From Lama glama (lineage: Eukaryota), in the NCBI GenBank assembly GCA_028534125.1, contig CM052816.1, positions 38,256,001 through 38,320,000 on the forward strand: DNA of 64,000 nucleotides, written 5' to 3'. Shown one piece after another: positions 5,222-55,934 of the stretch. Below the pieces are notes generated by a model. That model did not search any database, was not told the DNA's origin, and was given only the letters and a program-made list of their open reading frames with translations. The stretch's first letter is position 1; each line of letters begins with the position of its first letter. Position numbers and translations under genes: made by a program.

Positions 5222-6931
5222 CTGAAAGAAAAATACAAGCTTGTTTTCTCCTTGCCTCCAGGATATAAAAGAAGAAAAACAGCAGTTAAAAAGAAACTCT
5301 TTAAAAAAGCAACTGCCATAAAAACAGGAAGCAGACACATGGCATGGGAAGAATTCAAATGTTTGCTTAGTTCATGAAAAAGTTAATTCCTCAAAATGAT
5401 GACTGCCTTCACCAAACTACGCTTGCTTTTATTTATCATAAAAATGAATCTTCTCTGATTAAAAAGGTAAAGGAAACCCCACGATTTTAGTAGATGGTAT
5501 TAAACAGAACCATCTCATATACGTATAATGACTTGAGTCTGATTTTCAGAAAGAGATGACAGCGACTTGGATGAGGGCTGCGCTAAGGACACCTGCTGAT
5601 TGGTGTGGTACTATCTTCTCTCCTCTCCAATCCAAACCAATTAAGGCTGTGGAATTGCCAGTCTGACATCTTTAGCAATTGTAAGTGCATCACCGTATTG
5701 CGGATTCACAAGTTTCCACATACCAATTCACTTCTAATCCGCACAAAAAGGTTATTTTAAATCTCTATCCATTCTAGATTAACATCTTGTTTGCCTACTG
5801 ATTCCATTTTTATAATGTTTGACACATTCTATATAATCAAAAGAACTGAGTCCGTTTACTCTGCTGCCTAAAATTCAACTAGCCAAGTCATAAAAATGTA
5901 ATTTCTGATCTTGCTTCTCCTTGATTCAAATACCTGGAAGTTGAAAAATATTCCAAATAAATACACATGAATCTGCCATGCAAAATAATAGGCGCATCCA
6001 TGCTTCCATTTTTTGAAACCGGCAGGCATGCTCGACTAATCAACCAGAATTCCCTGTGCTATGCATTCATATATAATATATTTTAGACACCACTAGGTTC
6101 AAAAGGTGTTTTTTTCCACTCGTCTCAAAATGTCACAAAGCTAGAGAGAAGCTCTGTGATTTGAAATACAAAACATTTTTAGTGTGCCTCTTCCCTTAAT
6201 CCACCATATTGTATGAAAGTTTTTACATTTCTTACTATTACCTAAAGTGTACAGCAAAAGCCAGCACATTTGAGTACATTTCCATCTTATGCACATGTGT
6301 ACTACTCTGAATTAAAAACAAATTACATACTTTAAATGTGAAAACCTGCTACCCCAGGAAAGATTTTTTTAAATGCTGTGGGTTTTTTTGTTTGTTTGTT
6401 TAATCCCACAGTATACTTGCTAACAAGTCAGAGTCTAAATTCTCCTGATAGAGAACATGAATGATGAAGAAAACAAAGTACAGTAGCATTTAATTGAATA
6501 CTTTGGTCTTAATGAAGCAAACACAAATATCCTACATTTAGCTCTCCACATCTATTCAAATAAAAATTGATTTAGAAATTTTATGAAAAAAGTTCAAATC
6601 GCAGAGGAACAATTATAGCTGAATAAGATGAGCCATGGCTGGAGCTCTGTACCTGTTGAAATTATTGCTAGGGTTTAATGGACCAAGATGGATAGCTTTC
6701 ATGGTAAAAATATTTTGGTGAGGAGTTTAATGAGCTCAATGAGATTCTTACATGCCCAAAAAAGCACATAGAACATCTGGCACTGGTTATTACAATAATT
6801 CAAGGATTGTTCTGAATGTGATGCAAAAAAGCCAGCAACCTAATCATATCCACTTAAACGGATAATTACAGAAGATGTTAGAGGTGTGGGGTGGATACTG
6901 CTCCCAATTTAGAGTCCATACTTTCATTTTC

Positions 6932-16990: not shown

Positions 16991-18495
16991 AAAGCAAAAG
17001 TGATGAGAAAGTTCTCAGAATGTTGTTCAAAGACATACAAAGAGCTTGGGTATTAATGAGAAGACAAATAGAGGCAAATTTTAAGAGCCACATCATTGTT
17101 GTGGGATAGGGCATGGGGAATCTTTCTTCTCAGGATGTAACAGTGAGAATGTCAATAAAAGAAAGGCTAATAACGAATTTTTGTAATTGTTAGATATTCT
17201 AATATTTTATTAATAGTTGATAATTAGACTTATTATAATTTAGTTTCAGTTGTCCCATATGATAAAAAGAGGAGGGGTGGGGAGAGGAGGAGAAAGACGA
17301 GGAAGTAAAAGAAGGGAAAATAAATGAAGCATTATTTCGTTTCTTAAGTTAACCCATCACAGAGCATTAAAGCCAGAGATGATACCACACTTTTTTATGG
17401 ATTGCATGTTATAAAACAGCTTCTTGCTCTACAGCTTCTATAGTATAAAGGATCTCTCTAAAATAAATTGCTATTTTCCTAGGAGAGAAAAAGAAGTCCT
17501 AATGCATGTGCACTGTAGCTTAACATAAAGCACACCATCTGGTGCTTGCTTTTTATTTGGCAATGATCTATAATGACATATTATAACAGATTTTATCTGT
17601 TAATTACTAAGTAGCAAAAGTGATTCCACTCTCAAACTCTACAGAGCAAAATAAAACAGTTACAGTAATGGGAAAATGTTCCTTAAGAATTGAAAAATTA
17701 CTTCAGAATTCATAAGTCTGTTTTGTGCAATACTACTATTACTCACTGGTGTACAAATTTATAGCAGAGGTTTAGAACATTTCTTACTGCCTGCACTTCC
17801 ATTTTCTAATCTGTAAATGTTTTCATGATAGTGAAGTCCTTACTATGCATTATGGATAACACACTAAAACATGTAAATAGCAAAAGAACTAAAAGTTGCT
17901 TTATTTTTTAAATGGGTTAAGTCCAATGGCTTAATTAGACTGCATCTCTATATTTTGAACATGGACAAAAAACAGTGCAAATTTATTTGAAAGTATTCTT
18001 CTCCCTCAGACATACCAAAAAGTGAAAGCATGTGAAGAATCAAATTAGAAATACAGGTGATATCAAGACACATGATCCAAATGGTCCCTCCTTAGAAACA
18101 TCTTTAAAGAACTACTTTGATCGACTAAACCTCCCAGAGCCCTGGAGGCTTGCTGTTTTATCAGAAATAATATACAGTTGGAAATATATTTTCTTCACAT
18201 GAAGCTGGATGGCCGGAGGAGCATTCATAGGAACACAGGTCAACATTTTCACTCTTTTAAAAGACATCAGTGACACTGATGGGTACCCTATCTGCTAGAA
18301 GTTGTCACTTGCAGGTTCAAGGAAAAGTAATTTTGTCCCTTAAACCTTTAAGTTAAAAGGATTGAAAGAGAAATTACAAAGTTATATAGACAAGTGGAAG
18401 GAGTTTTCAAAGATTGTATGTCCAATCAAGCTTAATTTGACACTGGATCTACATTGTATTGCAACAGTAGAGTGTAGAACACAATTTAAAAATCT

Positions 18496-18579
18496 GCTAA
18501 AAAATTGTGCTCTACACTGGAATTTGATACAACATTGTAAAATGGTTATAAATCAATAAAAATGTTAAAAAAATAAAAA
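18496..18579 (+). mobile_element. Young, extremely 5'-truncated L1 3' tail (camelid-like)
   Basis: tgtgctctacactggaatttgatacaacattgtaaaatggttataaatcaataaaa plus A-rich tail, flanked by taaaaatct direct repeats (18487-18495, 18580-18588). Confidence 0.75.
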
Positions 18580-27131: not shown

Positions 27132-28750
27132 ACTTACATTTAAATTAAATCCTAAGTGCAGTCACTTGCATTAGCCAAGAATCCACACAACAAATATTTT
27201 TAGTTATCCTTCTTATCAGAAAGGCAGTTACCTTTAGATCCCATCAATACAAAAGGCTTTGCTGAGTAACAGTGGCTTAAAGAAATGGGCTGTCAGTAGA
27301 GCAACTAGTGGTGGTCGACACAGTGGATTGGCTGAAATATTTGAGACACTTTCCATTTTTTCAAAATAGGAATGATCTCTATAGCAAATTTACCTGTGCT
27401 AATCAGGTCATGTCTCATGCAAACACTGGAGAATTTTGAGGAAGCCAAAGATTTAGCTATTTCACCACAATTTCCCAACTACATTGTAATGAAAGCATGC
27501 CTCAAAGCAAATTCTGTCACACATACAAACACTTATTAAACAATCAATCACTCCTCAGCAAGCAGGCACAAACAATTTATATTGTCAGGTATACTGCTTT
27601 CTAGTCTCTATCTTTTTATGTTCTCTGATCAACTCTTTTCATGAAATTTTCTCTAGAGTCAGATATGACAACATCGCAGAGGCAGAATTCTATTACATTT
27701 TATAGAAGGCATCAGGGAGACAGAAATTCTCTGACCCAATATTGGCAAAGGCACATTTAGGAATCAAGCTTCAGGCACTGGATGCTACGGGATGCTTTAC
27801 AACCTGGTCCTATGAAGTGGGGGACTGTCCAATGCACATATCTTGAATACCACTAATTCCACTTTACCATGTTAGGTAACAGTTCCACATTCATGATTGT
27901 TAACAGGCCACTATTTCCAATAATGAAAACCGATTTCTGACATTCATTCTTTTAATTTAAAATGCACAAAATGTTGACATAGATAACAGAGGCTCTGGAA
28001 ATTCTCTCTCATAAAACATAACAGTAGCTGATCACTCATGGAATACGGGTTAGGAAAATTATATCTGGAGATGAAATGGAAATTAAATAGCATATACATA
28101 GATATCACATTTTTCTATGTTGAATTATTTTAAAGTAAATTATTGAGATCATAGAAACACTTTAGAATTAATCCCTAATATTCCTGCATCCAGCCACACA
28201 GGTGGGCACTTTAGTTGTCTGATCTGAATGTAAAATAACGCTGATTTTAGAATATTTTTATATATTTCGTCAATGTAACTTTCACACAAATTGTAATTCA
28301 ACATCTTAAAAAAAAAAAGAAAGCTAAAAATTCACCAAAGTTACTAAACAGTTTGGATGACTTTTTTGTGTATGCTTGCTAATTAATACTTATATGTGTG
28401 GCAGAATGTGGTCTTAGTCTTAAAAACTGTAAAGTAAGATTGTAGAGAAACAGCCAGCACTTATCTACCTCTAATTGTTGGCACCAACTGTTCTCTAACT
28501 AAAAGAACCTAGATATGCATAACAAATTCCTTTACTATCAACCTCCTATTTTCTTGATGTAGAAGTCCCCAAATTTCCACATCAAGAATTATTTTTCCCT
28601 GTGTTCTTGGTCTCTACCTCCCTACCCCTTCTCCTAATCCTATAAACAAGGTCGAATCTTACTACTGAAAAAACATTCTCTAAATCCTGTCCCTATTAAA
28701 CAATTTATATTATTTATTTTATGCACTTTCAAACTTTCTAACTCTAAGAT

Positions 28751-28781
28751 GTATAGCTCAGTGGTAGAGCATTTGACTGCA
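28751..28781 (+). pseudogene. Tailless retropseudogene of the 5' half of tRNA-Cys(GCA)
   Basis: gtatagctcagtggtagagcatttgactgca matches mammalian tRNA-Cys-GCA from about nt 5 through the GCA anticodon; flanked by perfect 16-bp direct repeats caaactttctaactct (28730-28745, 28780-28795); no T-arm, CCA or poly-A. Confidence 0.85.
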
Positions 28782-29009
28782 AACTTTCTAACTCTCCAAG
28801 GTCTCCTAATTGTCAGATTTGGTAACCTCCTCCGGGTCTTTAAAAATCTTTCTTCATCTTCCCATAATGTTTACCACTCTAGTCTTGAAATGTTTTCCTT
28901 TTCCTGTCTTCCTTCACACAATCTTACTAATCTCTTCTACAGTTCAGGCCAGTGTTTTTCAGTTTATTTTTTTAACCTTGAAATGTGAGAACCCAGCCTT
29001 TCTCTTGCC

Positions 29010-29130
29010 TATTTATTTTTATTGAGGTAACATCGGTTTGCAAGACTATGTAAGTTTCAGGTGTACAATGTTGTATATCTACTTCTGCATACACTACCAC
29101 CAAAAATTTACTTTCTACCTCTCACCTGTT
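29010..29130 (-). mobile_element. L1 3' end fragment (L1MA-like)
   Basis: ttattgaggtaacatcggttt...taagtttcaggtgtacaatg...tatatctacttctgcatacactac. Confidence 0.6.
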
Positions 29131-29799
29131 TTTCAGTTTAAGTCCCCAACTGGTCTTCCTTTTCCCAACCCTGAAATCTTAGCACTCCCAAGTGGTTTTA
29201 ACCTCATCATTATTCTCTATACTTTATCTTCTCTTATCTTACCAACAACACATCAATGAAAACGGTTTTAATGTTTAACATTATGAAGACTTTTAAAGTA
29301 CTTCCTGTATCTTTTGAATTCTAGGCCTGTACTGTCCCCACTACTAAGCCTTTAAAACTCAAATAAACCAAACAGAATGTATCATATCTTAACCATGTCT
29401 ATTTTAAATGTCAAGCCTGCTCAGCAGTTGACAGGAAGCCAATCTCCAGTCTATAGGGGAAGTTAAATATCACTGTAAACATAACAAGATGGATAACTGT
29501 GTTTCCAGAATTCTATATGATTGGAAGTGATAACTGTATGAAACATTTGGGGATTGACGCAAGACTGCTATTAAAAATGCATTTTCAGTAGTAAATGATG
29601 GTTGCTATGCGCCGCCTGAGGTGGATGTGCCCAGCTAACTACAAAATCCATTTTATTCACTAGGATATGGAAGTTGAGGCAGTACCAGAAGGAATCTCCC
29701 TCTTCACTCTGTCTGAAGGCAACACTCAAGATCTTCTCTAATTAAAAAGTGGGGAAAAAATTTAAAGAATATCCATTTGAGAGGCTACCAAATTAGAAT

Positions 29800-33249: not shown

Positions 33250-35830
33250 ATTTTATTAACACTTCTTAAAGTGTATTGTTTACTCAGAAAAGTGGACCAA
33301 AATAAGAATATAACCCATTTATGACCACAAAGCAGAGAAGTCTGTGTAGTGTGTAGATACCAATTAAGTCAATCAACAACATTTATCAGGACCTCAGAAG
33401 ATCTCTTCTGCATCCTCCCTACTTCCCTCCTTCTCTGTAAAAGTAATCACTCTCCTGACTTCTAAGACCATAGGGTAGTTTTGTCTGTTTCACACCTTAC
33501 ATAAATGAGACCAGCACGTCATGTACCACTTTGTGTCTGGCTCCTGTGGTTCAACCTTATGTTACTTTTATTAATTCATATCATTGTAGAAGATACAGTT
33601 GTTAAATTTTGGTGTTATATAGTAGTCCAGCAAATGAATTCACCATAATTTATATATCCATTCTATTGTTGATGGAGATTTTGTGTCATAATATTTTACA
33701 GTTTTGTGTCATAAACTTTCTTACACATGTATTTTGATACATTGCCTAAAACTGCCTTGGATGTGTGCATACCTTGATATCCTGGTATGGAATTGCTGGG
33801 TCACAGGGTGTGCATATCAGTTTTAGTAGATAATGCCAACTCCTATGCCAAAGGGGCTCTAACAATTTATACTCCCACCAGCAATGCATGTTTATATTAC
33901 TGTCATATTTTGTTTTCTGAATTTTATTTACCAGGACAAGTGCCATTTCCTCATATTGTTAATTTTCATTCTGATGAAGAAGTTGAGAAATTTCTCATAT
34001 GCTTATTAGCCATTTGGGTATCTTTGTTTGTGATAGTCCTGTTCAAACTGCAAGGCAATAATTCTCTTGGGTTATCTATGTTTTCTTGTAGTAGGAATTC
34101 TTTATATATTCTTGGTATAAACTCTCTTGGTGACATGTATTGCAAATAATCAATCATTGGTTAGCTATTCATTCTTTTAATAATGTCTTTTGATAAACAG
34201 AGTTCTTATATTTAATGTGGCATAATTTACTACATTTTCCCTTTATCGTGTTTTAATGTCATATTTAACAAAACTGCTTACCCAAAGATCAAGAAGACGT
34301 TCTTTCATATTGTTTTCTAGAAACACTGTTTTCACTTTTTAGACTACACTTTAAAACTGTAATCTGTATGGCATTTGTTTGGGAATTGCGTAAGGAAGGC
34401 ACTGTTTCATTTTATTATTTGCTAGATGGGTATCCAGTTATCATAATGCATTTAAATTGAGTCGACTAAGTTTCACCCATTGCTCTGCAATGCCACCATG
34501 TCATAAATCACACATAAGTTATATTCTGAACTCTCAGTTGTATTCCATTCTTATATTTGTCTGTCCTGTGCCAACACAGCTCTGTCTTAATTATTGCAGC
34601 TTTATAGTACATCATGCTATATGGTAGTATATTCCACTAAATTTAATATTTCTCCTAAAGAGTAATTCTACATTCTTGATCCTTTGCATTTGCCAGTTTT
34701 CACACAGCCACACATTGGTGAGGTTTTGATTGGATTAAGTTTAATTTGTAGACCAGTTCAAAGAAAACTGACCATGTAACCTATGGATATATAAGATCCT
34801 TTCATTTACAAGATCTTCTGTACAGAGTTTTTGCACATATTTCATTAGACATATTTCTAAGTACTTTATTGAAAATTATAACATATTGAAAAATTGTATT
34901 TCCCAACTAGTATGTCTGATGATAGATATAAAACCGGTTTTTGTATAATGACTCTGAGCTGAATTGACATATTTTAATAACTTATAGATTCTCTTGACTT
35001 TTCAGTATTTACTGCGAATAAGGAGAGTTGTATTCAATTCTTTTTAATTGTTGTACTATTATTTTTATGCCTTATTATATCACCTATATCCTCTAGTAAA
35101 ATGTTTAATAGAAGTAGTGGCAATAGGAATTAACCTTCTTATTTAGAATAAAAGAGATAGCTTTCAAAATTCTATAAACAATTACAATGTTTAACAGTAT
35201 GTTGTTCAATTAAGGTTTTTTTATCAGATCACTTTCTACTTCTAGTTCAGTAAATGTCTATAAAGAATAGATACTGATTTTATCAAGTGCTTTTTCTGAA
35301 CTAGTAATGTAATTTAATCAGAGCTTCCTTTTTCTGCTATTACTATAAAACACCTTAACTGATCTTCAAATGTTCAATTAATATTGCATTCATGAGAAAA
35401 CACAAATTGTGACATTATAAATGTATACTTTTTATAAATTATTACACTTGATGAGTTAATATTTTGCTTAGGATTTTACATCTGTGTTTCCTAGTGAAAT
35501 ATGCTTGTGTTATCTGAACTGTAACAACCTCGTCAAGCTGTTGTCAAAGTTTTATACTGATTTCATAAAATAAGTTGGAATTTTTCCCACATTTTTTATT
35601 CTGTGGAAGAATTTTTGTAGTATTTTCTTCATTTCCCTCTTAAACGTTTTGCAGAATATACTTCTGAAGCCATCTTAGTCTCAAATTTTCCTTATTTAAA
35701 TATTTAAGTCTTTGATATTATAGATTGCTCATATTGTATCTCTCTTCTTGTGTAAGTTTTGGTAGTTATAGTTTTTAGAGGAATTTGTTCACTTCATCTA
35801 AATCTTAAAATTGAACATGCTTCTCTCATA
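33250..35830 (-). mobile_element. Ancient LINE-1 (L1ME-like) 3'UTR and ORF2
   Basis: ORF 33746-33946 (HCWWEYKLLEPLW...PCDPAIP) and ORF 33966-34157 (FIPRIYKEFLL...DTQMANKHMRNFSTS) are L1 ORF2 C-terminal motifs; T-rich antisense body. Confidence 0.85.
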
Positions 35831-38942: not shown

Positions 38943-39475
38943 CTAGGTACATTTTATAGTAAAACAAGTATCACTTAAAGCAATATCTCATTGTATATGC
39001 ATGTTTCATTAAGTATGTGATGTAAGTTATACCCTGAATGTCCTAAAGAGTGTGAAGTGAGCACTGGTAGAAAATGAGAAAGTTAACCAGAGACAATTCA
39101 AATGCCCTTTTAGGTAAGTATTTTAATGTTCAGTCTATAATACGTTCAATAATACCTAATGCCAATCTAGTACTCTCTAAATGTAGAAAGAAAGAAGCTG
39201 AAGGATCTGATGCTTAGTGTTCAATTTCAAAGGAGCACTGTCAGTGGCACCAAGTTAACTGCATAAAAAAATTTATTTATTTTATTTATGTATCATTCAT
39301 TTATGATACATATTTGCCCTTACTACCTCTAGGATCATTGTGATTTTAATAAAAGCAGTTCCCCCACAAAAAAGCAGAATTTCTAACAAATGTTAATATC
39401 AGACATAGTCAGTGATTCTACTGAAATGTATGTGCCTCATCAATATGCAAAGACCTAAGTAAGATGCGATTTCCC

Positions 39476-40017
39476 TAGCCAAGACATGGAAACAACCAGA
39501 GTGTCCACTGACAGATGACTGGATAAAGAAGTTGTGGTACATTTATACAATAGAATACTACTCAGCCATAAAAATACAATAAAATAATGCCATTTGCAGC
39601 AACATGGATGGCCCTGGACAATGTCATTCTAAGTGAACTAAGCCAGAAAGAAAAAGAAAAATACCATATGATATCACTCATATGTGGAATCTAAAAAAAA
39701 AAAAAAGACAAATGAACTTAATATAAAACAGAAAAGATTCACAGACATAGAATACAGACTCGTGGTTGCCAGGAGGGAGGGGGGCAGGAAGGGAAAAACT
39801 GGCAGTTTGAGATTTGCAGATACTGACTGGTATATATAAAATAGATAAACAAGTTAATACTGTATAGCACAGCAAAATACATTCAGCATCATGCAGTAAC
39901 TTATGGTGAAAAAGAATAGGAAATTAATATATGTATATCCAGGTATGACTGAAGAATTGTGCTACACACCAGAAACTGATACAACACTGTAAACTGACTA
40001 TACCTCAATAAAAAAAA
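39476..40017 (+). mobile_element. Young 5'-truncated L1 (camelid-like), end of ORF2 plus 3'UTR and poly-A
   Basis: tagccaagacatggaaacaacc...atgccatttgcagcaacatggatgg...aaactgactatacctcaataaaa(A)n; 15-bp TSD aagatgcgatttccc (39461-39475) / aagatgtgatttccc (40018-40032). Confidence 0.95.
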
Positions 40018-40199
40018 AAGATGTGATTTCCCAAAATATAAATACATAAAAATGCACACAGAGTCTATCAGTGAACATGATTACATAAAATATAAACCAT
40101 CCACAAAAAGCATAATATAAGTTGGACAGAGGAGGGCCAAAAAAAAAAAGGAGTTAGACAAATAAATTTGAGATAAGATTTAGAACATTCATACACCAG

Positions 40200-46436: not shown

Positions 46437-49024
46437 GGCACCCTTTGCATAATCTCTCCCTTAACACAACAGCCCTCCAAGGTAAGTATTACTATATTCA
46501 CGTTATCACTGAAATCACTGAGGCAGAGATTAATAACTAGCTCAGGTTGAAGTTTTTCTTATCCTCGATCCTGTGATTTTTTTAATCATATGTAATAATA
46601 TGTAATCATATTTTTTAATCATATGTAATAATATTTTAAGACTCTTTCAAAAAGGCTTTTATAAATGTCATTGAGATAGACTGAAATGAGTATAAATGTA
46701 GGAAATCCATTTTTGTCAAATTTTTTATATGTCCACATATAAAAGCTTTTATAATTTTGCATTTCTCATAAATTAATTCTATATTTTACATATATTACAG
46801 GGAGATTTGTATAAAAATATAATGTGTGCCTTTAACACACACATACGTATGTGGACACTTCAAAGATAATCAAACATACTTTGATTTGGAGAAATACTGC
46901 AAATATATGTAAGGGCTGCTATATCAGATCCAATCCCTTGTAAATAACTAAGATGGAATTGTTTAGAAACCAACTTTTTTTTTTTCATTTTTAAGGAATT
47001 TTTGTTTCGTAGCACCATTATTCTCTCAGTTCTCTATCTTCTCCTGGTTGCTCACCATTCACAGTGATGTCTCCAAAGTTTGCTTAGACTCCAAGGAATG
47101 AAATATTTCCCTTGGCTATTGTTTACTTTCTCTGGAGGTGACACCTTATAGACTACACTCCCTAGGCCATTCATCTAACTTGGACTCATAATAGCAGCTG
47201 CTAATCAAACACAGTGGAATCAACTTGGAATCAAAATGTGCTCTCCTGTGTAGATTACGCCTCTTTACACCAGCTTCTAAAATAATGGAGAAAATCAAAA
47301 GGGCTTATTACCTGATAACTATTTCAAAAGCAATTATTTTCCATTTAATCAAATAATTTTGAAAACAGCTTGAATTATGTGCTTGTTGTGAATTTGAAAA
47401 TTACTGCTTCTCTTCAATCCATCTGCATACAACTCTGAAGTCTGTAAGTATATAACATCACACTCTAATAAGAATCTCCTACAATATCCAGAGAAAAGAT
47501 GCTTTCTAAAAGCTCCTGCATTTTGTAGCTATGGGTCTGCACAAGCAAGAGCACTGTGATTACTTCTGCAAGGAAGAAGGCTTTTTCATCGCCCAGATAC
47601 ACATGCTGGTAATATGTTTATAGAGGCTTTTATGTATCGCCTTTCTTATTTTGGGTACAAAAGATCTTTCTACTTCCTAAAATGGCCTGGGAAAGAATAT
47701 GGGGAACAGACCCTTTTAATCTATTAGAGAAACATCTTGTTCTGAAAATTAACTAGTTAGGGGCATCGTGATATTCAGGAGAACTTGTGGCTGATCAATC
47801 CTAACATTACCTTTTCTTTGGAAGTTATTCTATTGCATGAAGGACACAAAAATGCATGACAGTACAGTTTATCATATAGATGTCCAAACTGAAAAAATTT
47901 ATATAGCTTAGGAAGATGGTGCTTAAAATCTCAAAGAGTTTTTCATGACAGATTTCAGTTATACAATTTGTTATCAGGTACGAGGCAGCAGAGAAGTGTT
48001 AAAATTAAGAAGCACCACCAGGATGACTGGAAGAGAAATAAGGCAGAATGACTGCATATCAGTATTGACTCTCCTGGCTCCCCACCACCAACACTCTCAC
48101 ACATGTCAGATTAAATCAAATGACAGTTCCACTAAGGAGGGAGGGGATGGCATAAAAGTGCTGCATTGTTGAGGGGCTGTCCTTTTTATCTTGCCTTTAT
48201 TTCGTGTGACAAATGCAGAGTTAGATGTGCCTCCAGTTGTATTGTTCTTGTTACTGTTAATTGTTCTTCTTCCTTCTAATTAGCAAATCTGTATTGAGGG
48301 CTTACTGTGAGAAAACTAAACTTGGCACTTACGAACATCATAGGATACTGAATTAAAAGTAATACTCAAATAACTGCAATTTACAATAAGCATAAAAAAA
48401 GAAGAAAAATGAGGCTAACAATAGAGAAGGGGAAAGAGATGTTACTGTCAGGTAGCGTAAGATGCCCTCGCAAAGAAGGCACATTTCAGCTAAGTCCTGA
48501 TGAATAAGCAGGACCCAGTCACATCTCTACTGAGACACTTCACTGGGATCTATTCCTAGGAGCACTGTGAGCAGAAGGAAGCTCTCCAAGCCTGGATCTC
48601 TATCTGTTTTACTCAGTTCGGAGCAGTCAAGCTTAATTATTCAATTGACTTAGATTATCTTCATTGGGTTTCTTTTTCCATAGGGTATATATCATGACAC
48701 TTTGCCCTAAAAGTCTAACTCCTCTTGACTTGGGACTGGGCAAATCTAGTTTCTCAAACAGTGAGAAGACTCCATAAACACATCCAATATCTCAGTCTCT
48801 AGGATACATGATGAATTACTGAATGTGCCAGAGTCCTGCTATGAGTCCTGTATTTAGTACTGCAGGTTATGTTCATTTACTTCAAGATAATATATTCTTC
48901 CCACTCCAATCTCCCCTTGCCCTCTCCTTCTTTCCTTGTATTTTATCATGTGCATAAAGGAATATAAAGCTGCCTCCATAATCTGTTTTTATTTATTCAG
49001 ACTTCTTTCTGTACATGATCATGA

Positions 49025-50200: not shown

Positions 50201-53200
50201 TAAGTCTTACTCTCCTGGGACTGCTAACTGATGGGTACATTTTTAGTACAGTACATAATTTTCTCTAATAACACCGGGCTTTTGACACACAGCCCAATTG
50301 AAAGGGCTCTGTTCTATGACCAAGCTGTTCCTGTTATACCTCAGATCCTCTCAGATGAATAAATGGGATGAAGGAGATGCTGAGTGGAAAAAGTATAACT
50401 TAGATAGATAACATATGATACAGAGGATTAGAATTGGGTGCCAACTTGAAGACACAAAAATAAAGAAATAGAAGCTACTGTTAGTATAGACACTATTCTA
50501 TCCTTCCCTCATGCCTTCTCTCCAGATGTTTTTTCTACATATAGATGAACTTTATGATGAAAAAAAAGTTGGACTCACTATGCATTAGCCAAATATATTC
50601 TTGTCAATAAACAACTTCCAATAATAAACTTGTTTATGTATTATAGAATTATCCCTTTTGTGTGTAACCAACCATCTGTGACCTAATAATTTTCAAAAAA
50701 ATTCATGATTAAATTACTACTTAAATATTATCTTTTCTTATGTGAAGTACTAAGCATTGGCTAAGGAAAGATATTTTATCCAACATTATTTAAGTAATCC
50801 CATTTTAGCTGAACTAATTTAGAATGAGGCCTTCATTATACCAGCAGAGAAAGAATTGTGCTGAGAATCTAATGTTATTGATCTATGTGAAAATTACACT
50901 GTGAGGCTCCCCTTAATTGTATGCCAAAATGTAGCTGGCTATAGAGGATATTTATTGTCAACTTCCACTGCAAGATGTTTTACTACCAATATTAAATTCA
51001 AGCTAAACACAGAAATATATACCTGTTCAGAAAATAGGCCAACCATATATAGCAAGTATTAATTTATATTTGAATGAATGCAAATATAAAAATTATTTTG
51101 ACACAGTGTTCACTTTGAGGCACTCAGAGACCATTACAATATATCATGTCTGTCACAAAATAATGCAGTTTACTATGTTAACAACAGAGTAACAATAATA
51201 TATGAAAAGTGAATATCCCTTTTTATCACAACAAACATTATTGGCTGTTGTATCTAGATTCTGTAGTGCTTCCTCAAATAAATCTGAACTCACTCCTAAA
51301 TTATAAATATAATTTAAATGAATTATAAATATAATTTAAATATACATTTCTTTAACAAATACTACAATTTATAGTTTAACTTAAATATAAATTTAGAAAG
51401 GTCTCTACACGAAAAGTTGCTATTTTAACTGTTATTACTCTTAATTTTTCTGTTATTTGTTACTGCCTTCAAGTAGGCAAGCTTTACATTATTGTGAAAA
51501 AACCCTGAGGTGTTAGCATCATCACCACGGCACAACAGTGAGGTTGTTTTAAGAAACAGGATTCAGATAGAGCTATATTCCTTATGCAATATTTTTCTTA
51601 AAAAATTAATTACTGAAAAAAGGTTTTGAAATTAGGCATGTATCACTGTGTATGTTTCCAAATGATTTAATTAGAAAAGGGCATCTCTAAATGGTAGGTA
51701 GGCAATAGATCATATTTCTAAAATAAGTCAGAGACAGTCTCTGCTATGGTTTCATTCCTGAGGTATATATGACTTGGAACTGTAAATGCATTGTTCAGGG
51801 ATTATTTATTCTGGCTACCTATCATTAGTTGATTTAAGATTAAAAGCTAAGAAAAAAGGGGAGTCATTACTGCAGCAATCATATTTTAGAGTTTACAGGA
51901 CATGAAGCAGTTTAATATGAAATATCTAGACTCAGGTTCTGATTCAGTTACTTTCCAAGCTTATTTATTTTTGTAATTTATCAGGCATCAGGTAAGTTTC
52001 TAATACATTCTTAAAACTTTAAGAAGATATTAATGATGCATCTCTGAAAGCTACTTTTTATTACAATAAATAAACCATATTATTTTATTAATTTTTTATT
52101 TTATATATAGAACATAAATCGAATTAACATTGCACCATTAGTCACATTTCAACTGAATTGGCATTACTTACTTGAGTATTGATCACAACATCCTTTCTGG
52201 TTTCCTGACACACAATATAATTGGCATTTGGGCCAAAACCCAATTGGAGACAAAAGTTAATTCTAATTGTCCTTGATTGATTTCAGCATTTAAAGCAGGC
52301 AACAGTCCAATTATTTTGTGACTTTTTTTGATCTTCAACTCCTTCTAGGATGAAGCTTTTCAGGTTATTATTATTATCACTTTTATTAATATAGACTTTT
52401 TATTTGAATATGGTAGGATTAATAAAATACACTATTTTAAAAAAATAATCATATGATGACAAAAATGTGAAAGCATATTTAACGCCTTTCAAGCCAGCAA
52501 ATAAGGGATTAAAAACATTAATAACATAAAATTTAATACTGAAAGACAAGCCACAATCTTGGAAGAACTGAATAAAGTGTTAAGGCTGATGAAGTTTGAT
52601 TGGAAAAAAAAAACAGCAACAAAACTACTCAGACTTAAAGTCCATGAGTCCATCCTATACTCAGTTCACAGAAGTAAACTAGATTATCTAGAAAAAAAAA
52701 TTATATATATAGATAGATAGGAAGATACGTCTTCAACCCCATCTGTTCTCTGATTCAGGGACCATATAAATGAGAAGTGTGTAGCTATTCTGTCTCCATT
52801 TCAAGCTACCATCCCCAAAACATGTACGTGCAGATCCCCACATTAAATTCCAAATAATAACTTGGTGAAAATAAGAGTGGTAGAGTGATAGTCATCACAT
52901 TTTTAATCTCTGGAGGTGAATTTTTCATAAAAATTCATAACAGTATAGGAAAAAGTAGAAATTCTAATTTTTCATGTAACTCTGTAATGTGAAACAAGGT
53001 ATGGGAGGTAGAAGAGGTAAGAAGTCATTAAAAAAAAAAGGTCTGTTTATAAACCTAAACTTGCCTTGGAATTGAGCCCATCGATTTGCTTTCCAAATAT
53101 CCACCAAGGCATCAGCAGTAAGGCCAAAGATAACCTACTCACTCTTACCTTTGTCAAATACTTAGCCTAGTATTATTACCTCATATTGAGTAATGAGTAT

Positions 53201-55833: not shown

Positions 55834-55934
55834 TAAATATGTATGTATATATACGACTGAAACATTATGTTGTACACCAGAAATTGACACAACATTGCAA
55901 ACTGACTATACTTCAATTTTAAAAAATGAAAAAA
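55834..55934 (+). mobile_element. Young, extremely 5'-truncated L1 3' tail (camelid-like)
   Basis: tatgtatatatacgactgaaacattatgttgtacaccagaaattgacacaacattgcaaactgactatacttcaa plus A-tail; 14-bp TSD aaatttaaataggt (55820-55833) / aaacttaaataggt (55935-55948). Confidence 0.88.

Follow-up and report, generated by a model that had tools for sequence, protein, structure and literature searches.

How did 31 bases of a cysteine tRNA, broken off at the anticodon, come to lie between two identical copies of a 16-bp sequence? An earlier note on this locus had proposed that the machinery of LINE-1 (L1) copied either a cleaved tRNA half or an internally primed tRNA at this site. The proposal was examined in the window, i.e. 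the whole stretch of 64,000 nucleotides in which the locus lies. On inspection by eye over its full length the window looked like repeat-rich mammalian non-coding DNA. Its G+C content is 29-39%, and among its 79 open reading frames no stop-to-stop frame exceeds 126 codons.

The tRNA-Cys copy and its flanking repeats

The A box, the D arm and the 5' side of the anticodon arm of tRNA-Cys(GCA) are present in the copy at 28751-28781 (Table 1), and the B box is absent. The same 31-mer was found without mismatch in 16 of 16 metagenome loci, which had been retrieved by that very pattern. ARAGORN called a tRNA-Cys(GCA) gene in 14 of them and the remaining two are truncated by the contig end. When these loci were aligned on the common 31-mer, a normal 3' half followed downstream and four further bases preceded it, which are GGGG in 14 of 16 cases. 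One of the loci (L001, 179-380) carries tRNA-Cys and tRNA-His genes 56 bases apart on a eukaryotic-type contig. A profile built from eight distinct full tRNA-Cys genes yielded the insert site as the sole significant match in the window (E 1.6e-9), aligned to model positions 5-37 with one mismatch; the runner-up had an E value of 4.2, and no second significant tRNA-Cys-like head was detected in the window by this search. Under an independent-base model about 1e-14 occurrences of the 31-mer are expected within the window, and comparison with viral contigs gave no match. The identity over positions 5-35 and the profile score bear out the earlier identification of the insert as the 5' part of tRNA-Cys(GCA) ending at the anticodon. 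The length of 31 nt given for it holds for the tRNA-matching bases, but two of these belong to the right repeat as well, so that the interval between the repeats contains just 29 of them.

Table 1. Features at the tRNA-Cys copy and L1-like elements of the window (window positions)
Feature	Position	Strand	Observation
Left repeat of the target-site duplication (16 bp)	28730..28745	+	TT before it; end of an 82% A+T stretch
Additional 5'-junction bases (n=5)	28746..28750	+	no match to tRNA positions 1-4
tRNA-Cys(GCA) copy, linear positions 5-35 (from G5 through the third anticodon base)	28751..28781	+	31/31 identical
Right repeat of the target-site duplication (16 bp)	28780..28795	+	no poly-A before it
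Putative priming microhomology	28780..28783	+	2 bases exact in tRNA and target; 3/4 if extended to tRNA position 37
L1-like 3' end with its own target-site duplication	28953-28966 / 29127-29140	minus	14 bp, exact
5'-truncated L1-like 3' end (~540 bp) with A tail	39461-39475 / 40018-40032	plus	15-bp target-site duplication, one mismatch

The match might also be what remains of a longer tRNA gene or a tRNA-derived SINE that was broken by deletion, with a local repeat contributed by chance or slippage. A weak full-model Rfam match at 28747-28854 (16.1 bits against a gathering score of 29, E 8.6) points in this direction, as does a short stretch to the right of the repeat that resembles a tRNA 3' half. 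However, this resemblance was picked post hoc and was equalled by 3-13% of about 5100 random pieces of the window under six scoring settings. A perfect 5' part next to a wholly decayed 3' part is also unexpected, the repeat boundaries coincide with the end of the tRNA match, and ARAGORN calls no tRNA in the window. A remnant of this kind is extremely unlikely; the ARAGORN and Rfam searches, the random pieces and the profile leave both the SINE head and the broken gene unsupported; the SINE head had already been rejected in the earlier note.

Other candidates were rejected as well. A tRNA-derived SINE combines a head containing A box and B box with a body and a tail, and here the right repeat stands directly after the anticodon. 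A functional tRNA gene with a complete cloverleaf was not found among the ARAGORN calls, and no Rfam match in the window reaches its gathering score. Matches of Rfam snR73, Hrs1, SNORD25 and ceN47 near the site (E 2.8-6.5, below gathering scores) were taken as chance.

The direct repeats at 28730-28745 and 28780-28795 are exact over 16 bp and enclose 34 unique bases, giving a net gain of 50 bp of DNA. When the same flank geometry was slid along the window, an exact repeat of at least 16 occurred at 3 of 6355 positions, each 18 long; these three probably reflect a poly-A pair at 6931/6996. Target-site duplications peak in length at 14-16 bp, according to the accessible part of the source. The repeats, the absence of poly-A and the two last bases of the insert that are common to the right repeat (28780-28781) were all found as previously described.

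At the 5' junction the oligo-G start of the tRNA had been described as replaced. Four of the five leading G residues are indeed gone and five extra bases stand in front, but G5 is kept. Only one of the four bases directly before the 28751 core is a G, compared with GGGG in 14 of the 16 loci. The five bases are presumably untemplated or locally templated filler. According to the available text of PMC2912911, 11.7-14.6% of Alu and truncated L1 insertions carry extra 5' bases, and thus a filler of five bases is nothing out of the ordinary. The final four of them equal tRNA-Cys positions 35-38, i.e. at or just past the break point, which is probably chance. Six bases at the filler resemble the L1 YY1 site, a match that is as post hoc as the former.

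Comparison with tailless tRNA retropseudogenes

Schmitz et al. 2004 are said to have given an earlier account of tailless tRNA retropseudogenes than the study with which the insert was compared here. In the accessible part of that study (Noll 2015, PMC5322556), the class comprises near 5'-complete and 3'-truncated RNA copies with target-site duplications, no oligo(A) and 2-18 nt of target complementarity. The insert lies within the bounds of every sequence criterion of its screen, as given there, which supports the assignment proposed in the earlier note. The copy starts at position 5, so that four bases are missing at the 5' end (limit 5 nt or fewer), and ends at position 35 of 72 (at least 10 nt lacking at the 3' end). 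It is 31 nt long (at least 30 nt) and identical at 31 of 31 positions (more than 69%). Its duplications measure 16 nt (8-35 nt), are identical (at least 70%) and lie 5 nt from the element start (at most 20 nt). A tail is absent, and the two shared bases fall within the 2-18 nt of complementarity. The lost 5' bases and the five filler bases both remain inside the tolerances of the class.

The target site fits the published consensus TT/WAAAAWW modestly. Read in sense, it agrees at 7 of 9 positions, against 4 of 9 in the opposite orientation; 4.1% of the sites in the A+T-rich window score at least 7 of 9. The consensus, as printed in the available part of Noll 2015, has W at the break position, whereas the insert site has C.

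The insert also resembles the cases in the accessible part of PMC5322556 in consisting of a tRNA 5' part with its 3' end in the anticodon loop, in its target-site duplication without oligo(A), in its short target complementarity and A-rich site, and in its source, as tRNA-Cys is frequent there. Unlike the human cases listed in that part, it resides in a non-primate mammal. The supplement, as far as accessible, tabulates 72 human tRNA-Cys rows (71 GCA, 1 ACA), of which 37 are 33-38 nt long, 33 are 40-46 nt long and two are longer; the modal length is 37 nt with 15 rows. These lengths are given with neither start position nor strand and include genomic duplicates, and they approximate the end point only. 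The copy falls in the main human Cys length group (33-38 nt) of this supplement. The rarity of such copies that the earlier note had implied is not supported, given these 72 tabulated cases. The copy at 28751-28781 is a new example of an already well-described class of genomic fossils, and its membership in the L1-mobilised tailless retropseudogenes is highly probable, whatever RNA served as template.

L1-like elements with duplications of their own are present in the window, and the two listed in Table 1 are putative L1 3' ends. The first is an insert of 160 bp that begins about 160 bases to the right of the tRNA-Cys copy. On the minus strand it consists of an L1-like 3' end (~29012-29126) followed by about 40 unrelated bases and an A run, an arrangement suggestive of a very short L1 copy that carried a 3' transduction. 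The second, at 39461-40032, is the youngest-looking L1 in the window; the single mismatch in its duplication is a CpG transition. The younger of the L1 ends have a camelid appearance. Related short L1 3' ends at 55837-55929 and 18477-18569 are 77% and 62% identical to 39929-40021. Together with the junction structure, the TSD-flanked L1 pieces lead us to infer that L1 ORF2p made the copy at 28751-28781. Local duplications are also seen at 46578-46634 (24 bp, 9-bp gap), 51299-51341 (21-22 bp, tandem) and 33679-33714 (13 bp, 10-bp gap), and are probably due to slippage.

End joining, too, leaves microhomology (here 3') and filler (here 5') at its junctions. The insert could accordingly have been patched into a staggered double-strand break from an RNA or cDNA template, independently of the L1 endonuclease, and the 3' microhomology of tailless copies has been reported to be similar to that seen in endonuclease-independent L1 insertions. 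The clean duplication of 14-16 bp, the L1-type consensus site and the expected orientation are instead the usual signature of target-primed reverse transcription (TPRT). A break patch is very unlikely on balance. A microhomology of two bases is common by chance, which counts against the reading of the junction as an L1 priming site.

RNA template and priming

The reading preferred here, with a probability of about 0.7, is LINE-1 target-primed reverse transcription for which an intact tRNA served as template and its anticodon loop as the priming site. LINE-1 ORF2p would have acted in trans in the germ line and left a dead tailless tRNA retropseudogene. Judging from the site sequence, its endonuclease would have nicked the bottom strand at the A-rich, L1-like site, and the T-rich 3' end thereby released may then have base-paired in the open anticodon loop of a tRNA-Cys, either intact or still a precursor. 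The microhomology is the observed part of this pairing, which would comprise two exact pairs and possibly four with one G-T wobble. If mature tRNA-Cys carries m1G adjacent to the anticodon (m1G37), the wobble pair would require an unmodified precursor. Reverse transcription would have proceeded from the anticodon toward the 5' end and halted inside the leading G run, where the copy ends four bases short of the tRNA 5' end. Five extra bases would have been added at the 5' junction, and a staggered second nick 14-16 bp away would have been filled in to give the duplication. For this last step the structure is what is observed, and the enzymology is carried over from what is established for TPRT and L1.

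The same L1 machinery could also have used a pre-cut 5' tRNA half, cleaved between C and A of the anticodon by an enzyme of the RNase A family and perhaps carrying a few added A residues that paired with the T run of the target. The junction cannot separate an intact from a pre-cut RNA because the shared bases hide the RNA end, which may have been at position 33, 34 or 35. RNase A-family enzymes prefer C-A bonds in anticodon loops according to the available text of 10.1101/815803, the Cys anticodon contains such a bond, and 5' halves of tRNA-Cys are a described species (PMC10468377). The human end points argue for internal priming instead. In the accessible supplement of PMC5322556 the modal length of 37 nt lies past the C-A bond, and 33 of the 72 human Cys rows have lengths of 40-46 nt, with ends beyond the anticodon loop; priming at A-rich spots would fit this longer group better than cleavage in the loop. 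The profile alignment of the insert likewise ends at 37, the same as the modal length in that supplement. Mouse-lung cP-RNA-seq found cleavage to be infrequent at np 37 and 38, a result that the accessible part of 10.1101/815803 gives for all tRNAs and not for Cys alone. The accessible part of Noll 2015 (PMC5322556) favours internal priming from tests on 5S rRNA and U2 rather than tRNA, and reports that oligoadenylated truncated intermediates of these two RNAs were not found. The earlier note had named both a cleaved half and an internally primed tRNA; the human Cys end points lean toward the latter, although the junction does not settle the choice. A pre-cut half is an unlikely template by comparison with an intact tRNA.

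Half-length tRNA pieces have also been described in 21 human tRNA/L1 chimeras, which the available text of 10.1101/2025.02.02.635956 attributes to tRNA halves and which would favour a pre-cut template. These chimeras (also PMC13174262, in its accessible part) share with the insert the half-length tRNA piece, a target-site duplication (9-19 bp there) and an L1 endonuclease motif. However, the tRNA is fused to L1 in the chimeras, as described in that text, and is mostly antisense to it, whereas the insert stands alone and is sense to the putative priming site. RtcB ligation of U6 to L1, reported in the accessible part of PMC6789731, adds nothing for the insert, because no L1 is joined to it, and PMC8605555, in its accessible part, does not deal with tRNA retrocopies. 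The 5' tiRNA-Cys with terminal oligo-G (PMC10468377) derives from the same tRNA and has a similar span. It is an RNA, whereas the insert is a DNA copy from which four of the five quadruplex-forming G residues have been lost and which has no B box to drive transcription.

Age, segregation and significance

A stretch of 1801 bases around the site is present in 20 sequencing runs from 10 studies with four organism labels; four further run rows with a share of 0.00 were left out. Runs X1 (organism A) and X2 (organism B) each hold 1.00 of 187 sampled words, and two more runs hold 0.98. If the words are drawn at random, all of them would miss the 34 unique bases with a probability of 0.0007, and thus X1 and X2 probably carry the insert. 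These two runs and the two at 0.98 are flagged as possible sources of the window DNA, and the word shares of X1 and X2 lend weak independent support to the insert. Such flags on all four best-holding runs would also be compatible with an artefact of the assembly or the library. However, X1 and X2 differ in study, year and organism label and each hold every sampled word, and a target-site duplication at an L1-like site would not be expected of an artefact, to which we assign next to no likelihood.

The other 16 of the 20 runs have shares of 0.89-0.95. Absence of the insert together with one SNP predicts a share of 0.946, and three SNPs predict 0.947. The 16 shares fit an empty allele and a few SNPs alike, and a presence/absence polymorphism of the insert is possible. 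The neutral rate is about 2e-9 per site and year. By a hand estimate, the perfect match over about 61 sites, with a tRNA part free of CpG, allows an age of about 20 Myr. Because a match this short allows such an age, the unmutated repeats, from which the earlier note had suggested a recent event, are a weak sign of recency. It is improbable that the insertion is young and still segregating, that a 5' tRNA-Cys half cut by a nuclease served as template and that copying stalled at an oligo-G quadruplex end. A limited search of the open-access literature turned up the class and the debate over halves and intact tRNAs, and found no publication on the locus or on such a 5'-end quadruplex block.

The copy most likely does nothing, judged from its lack of the B box and the 3' half. 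As a single locus it means little, as the genome probably contains dozens of such Cys copies; the accessible supplement of Noll 2015 tabulates 72 for human. Such copies can confuse the mapping of tRNA-fragment reads. If the insert segregates, it would provide a clean presence/absence marker for the lineage and point to L1 having been active in trans recently. If it should in addition be young and derived from a cut half, the locus would be a heritable DNA record of LINE-1 copying germ-line tRNA halves. The class as a whole could test if L1 draws on tRNA halves or on intact tRNAs in the germ line, a question on which the accessible parts of Noll 2015 (PMC5322556) and 10.1101/2025.02.02.635956 lean opposite ways.
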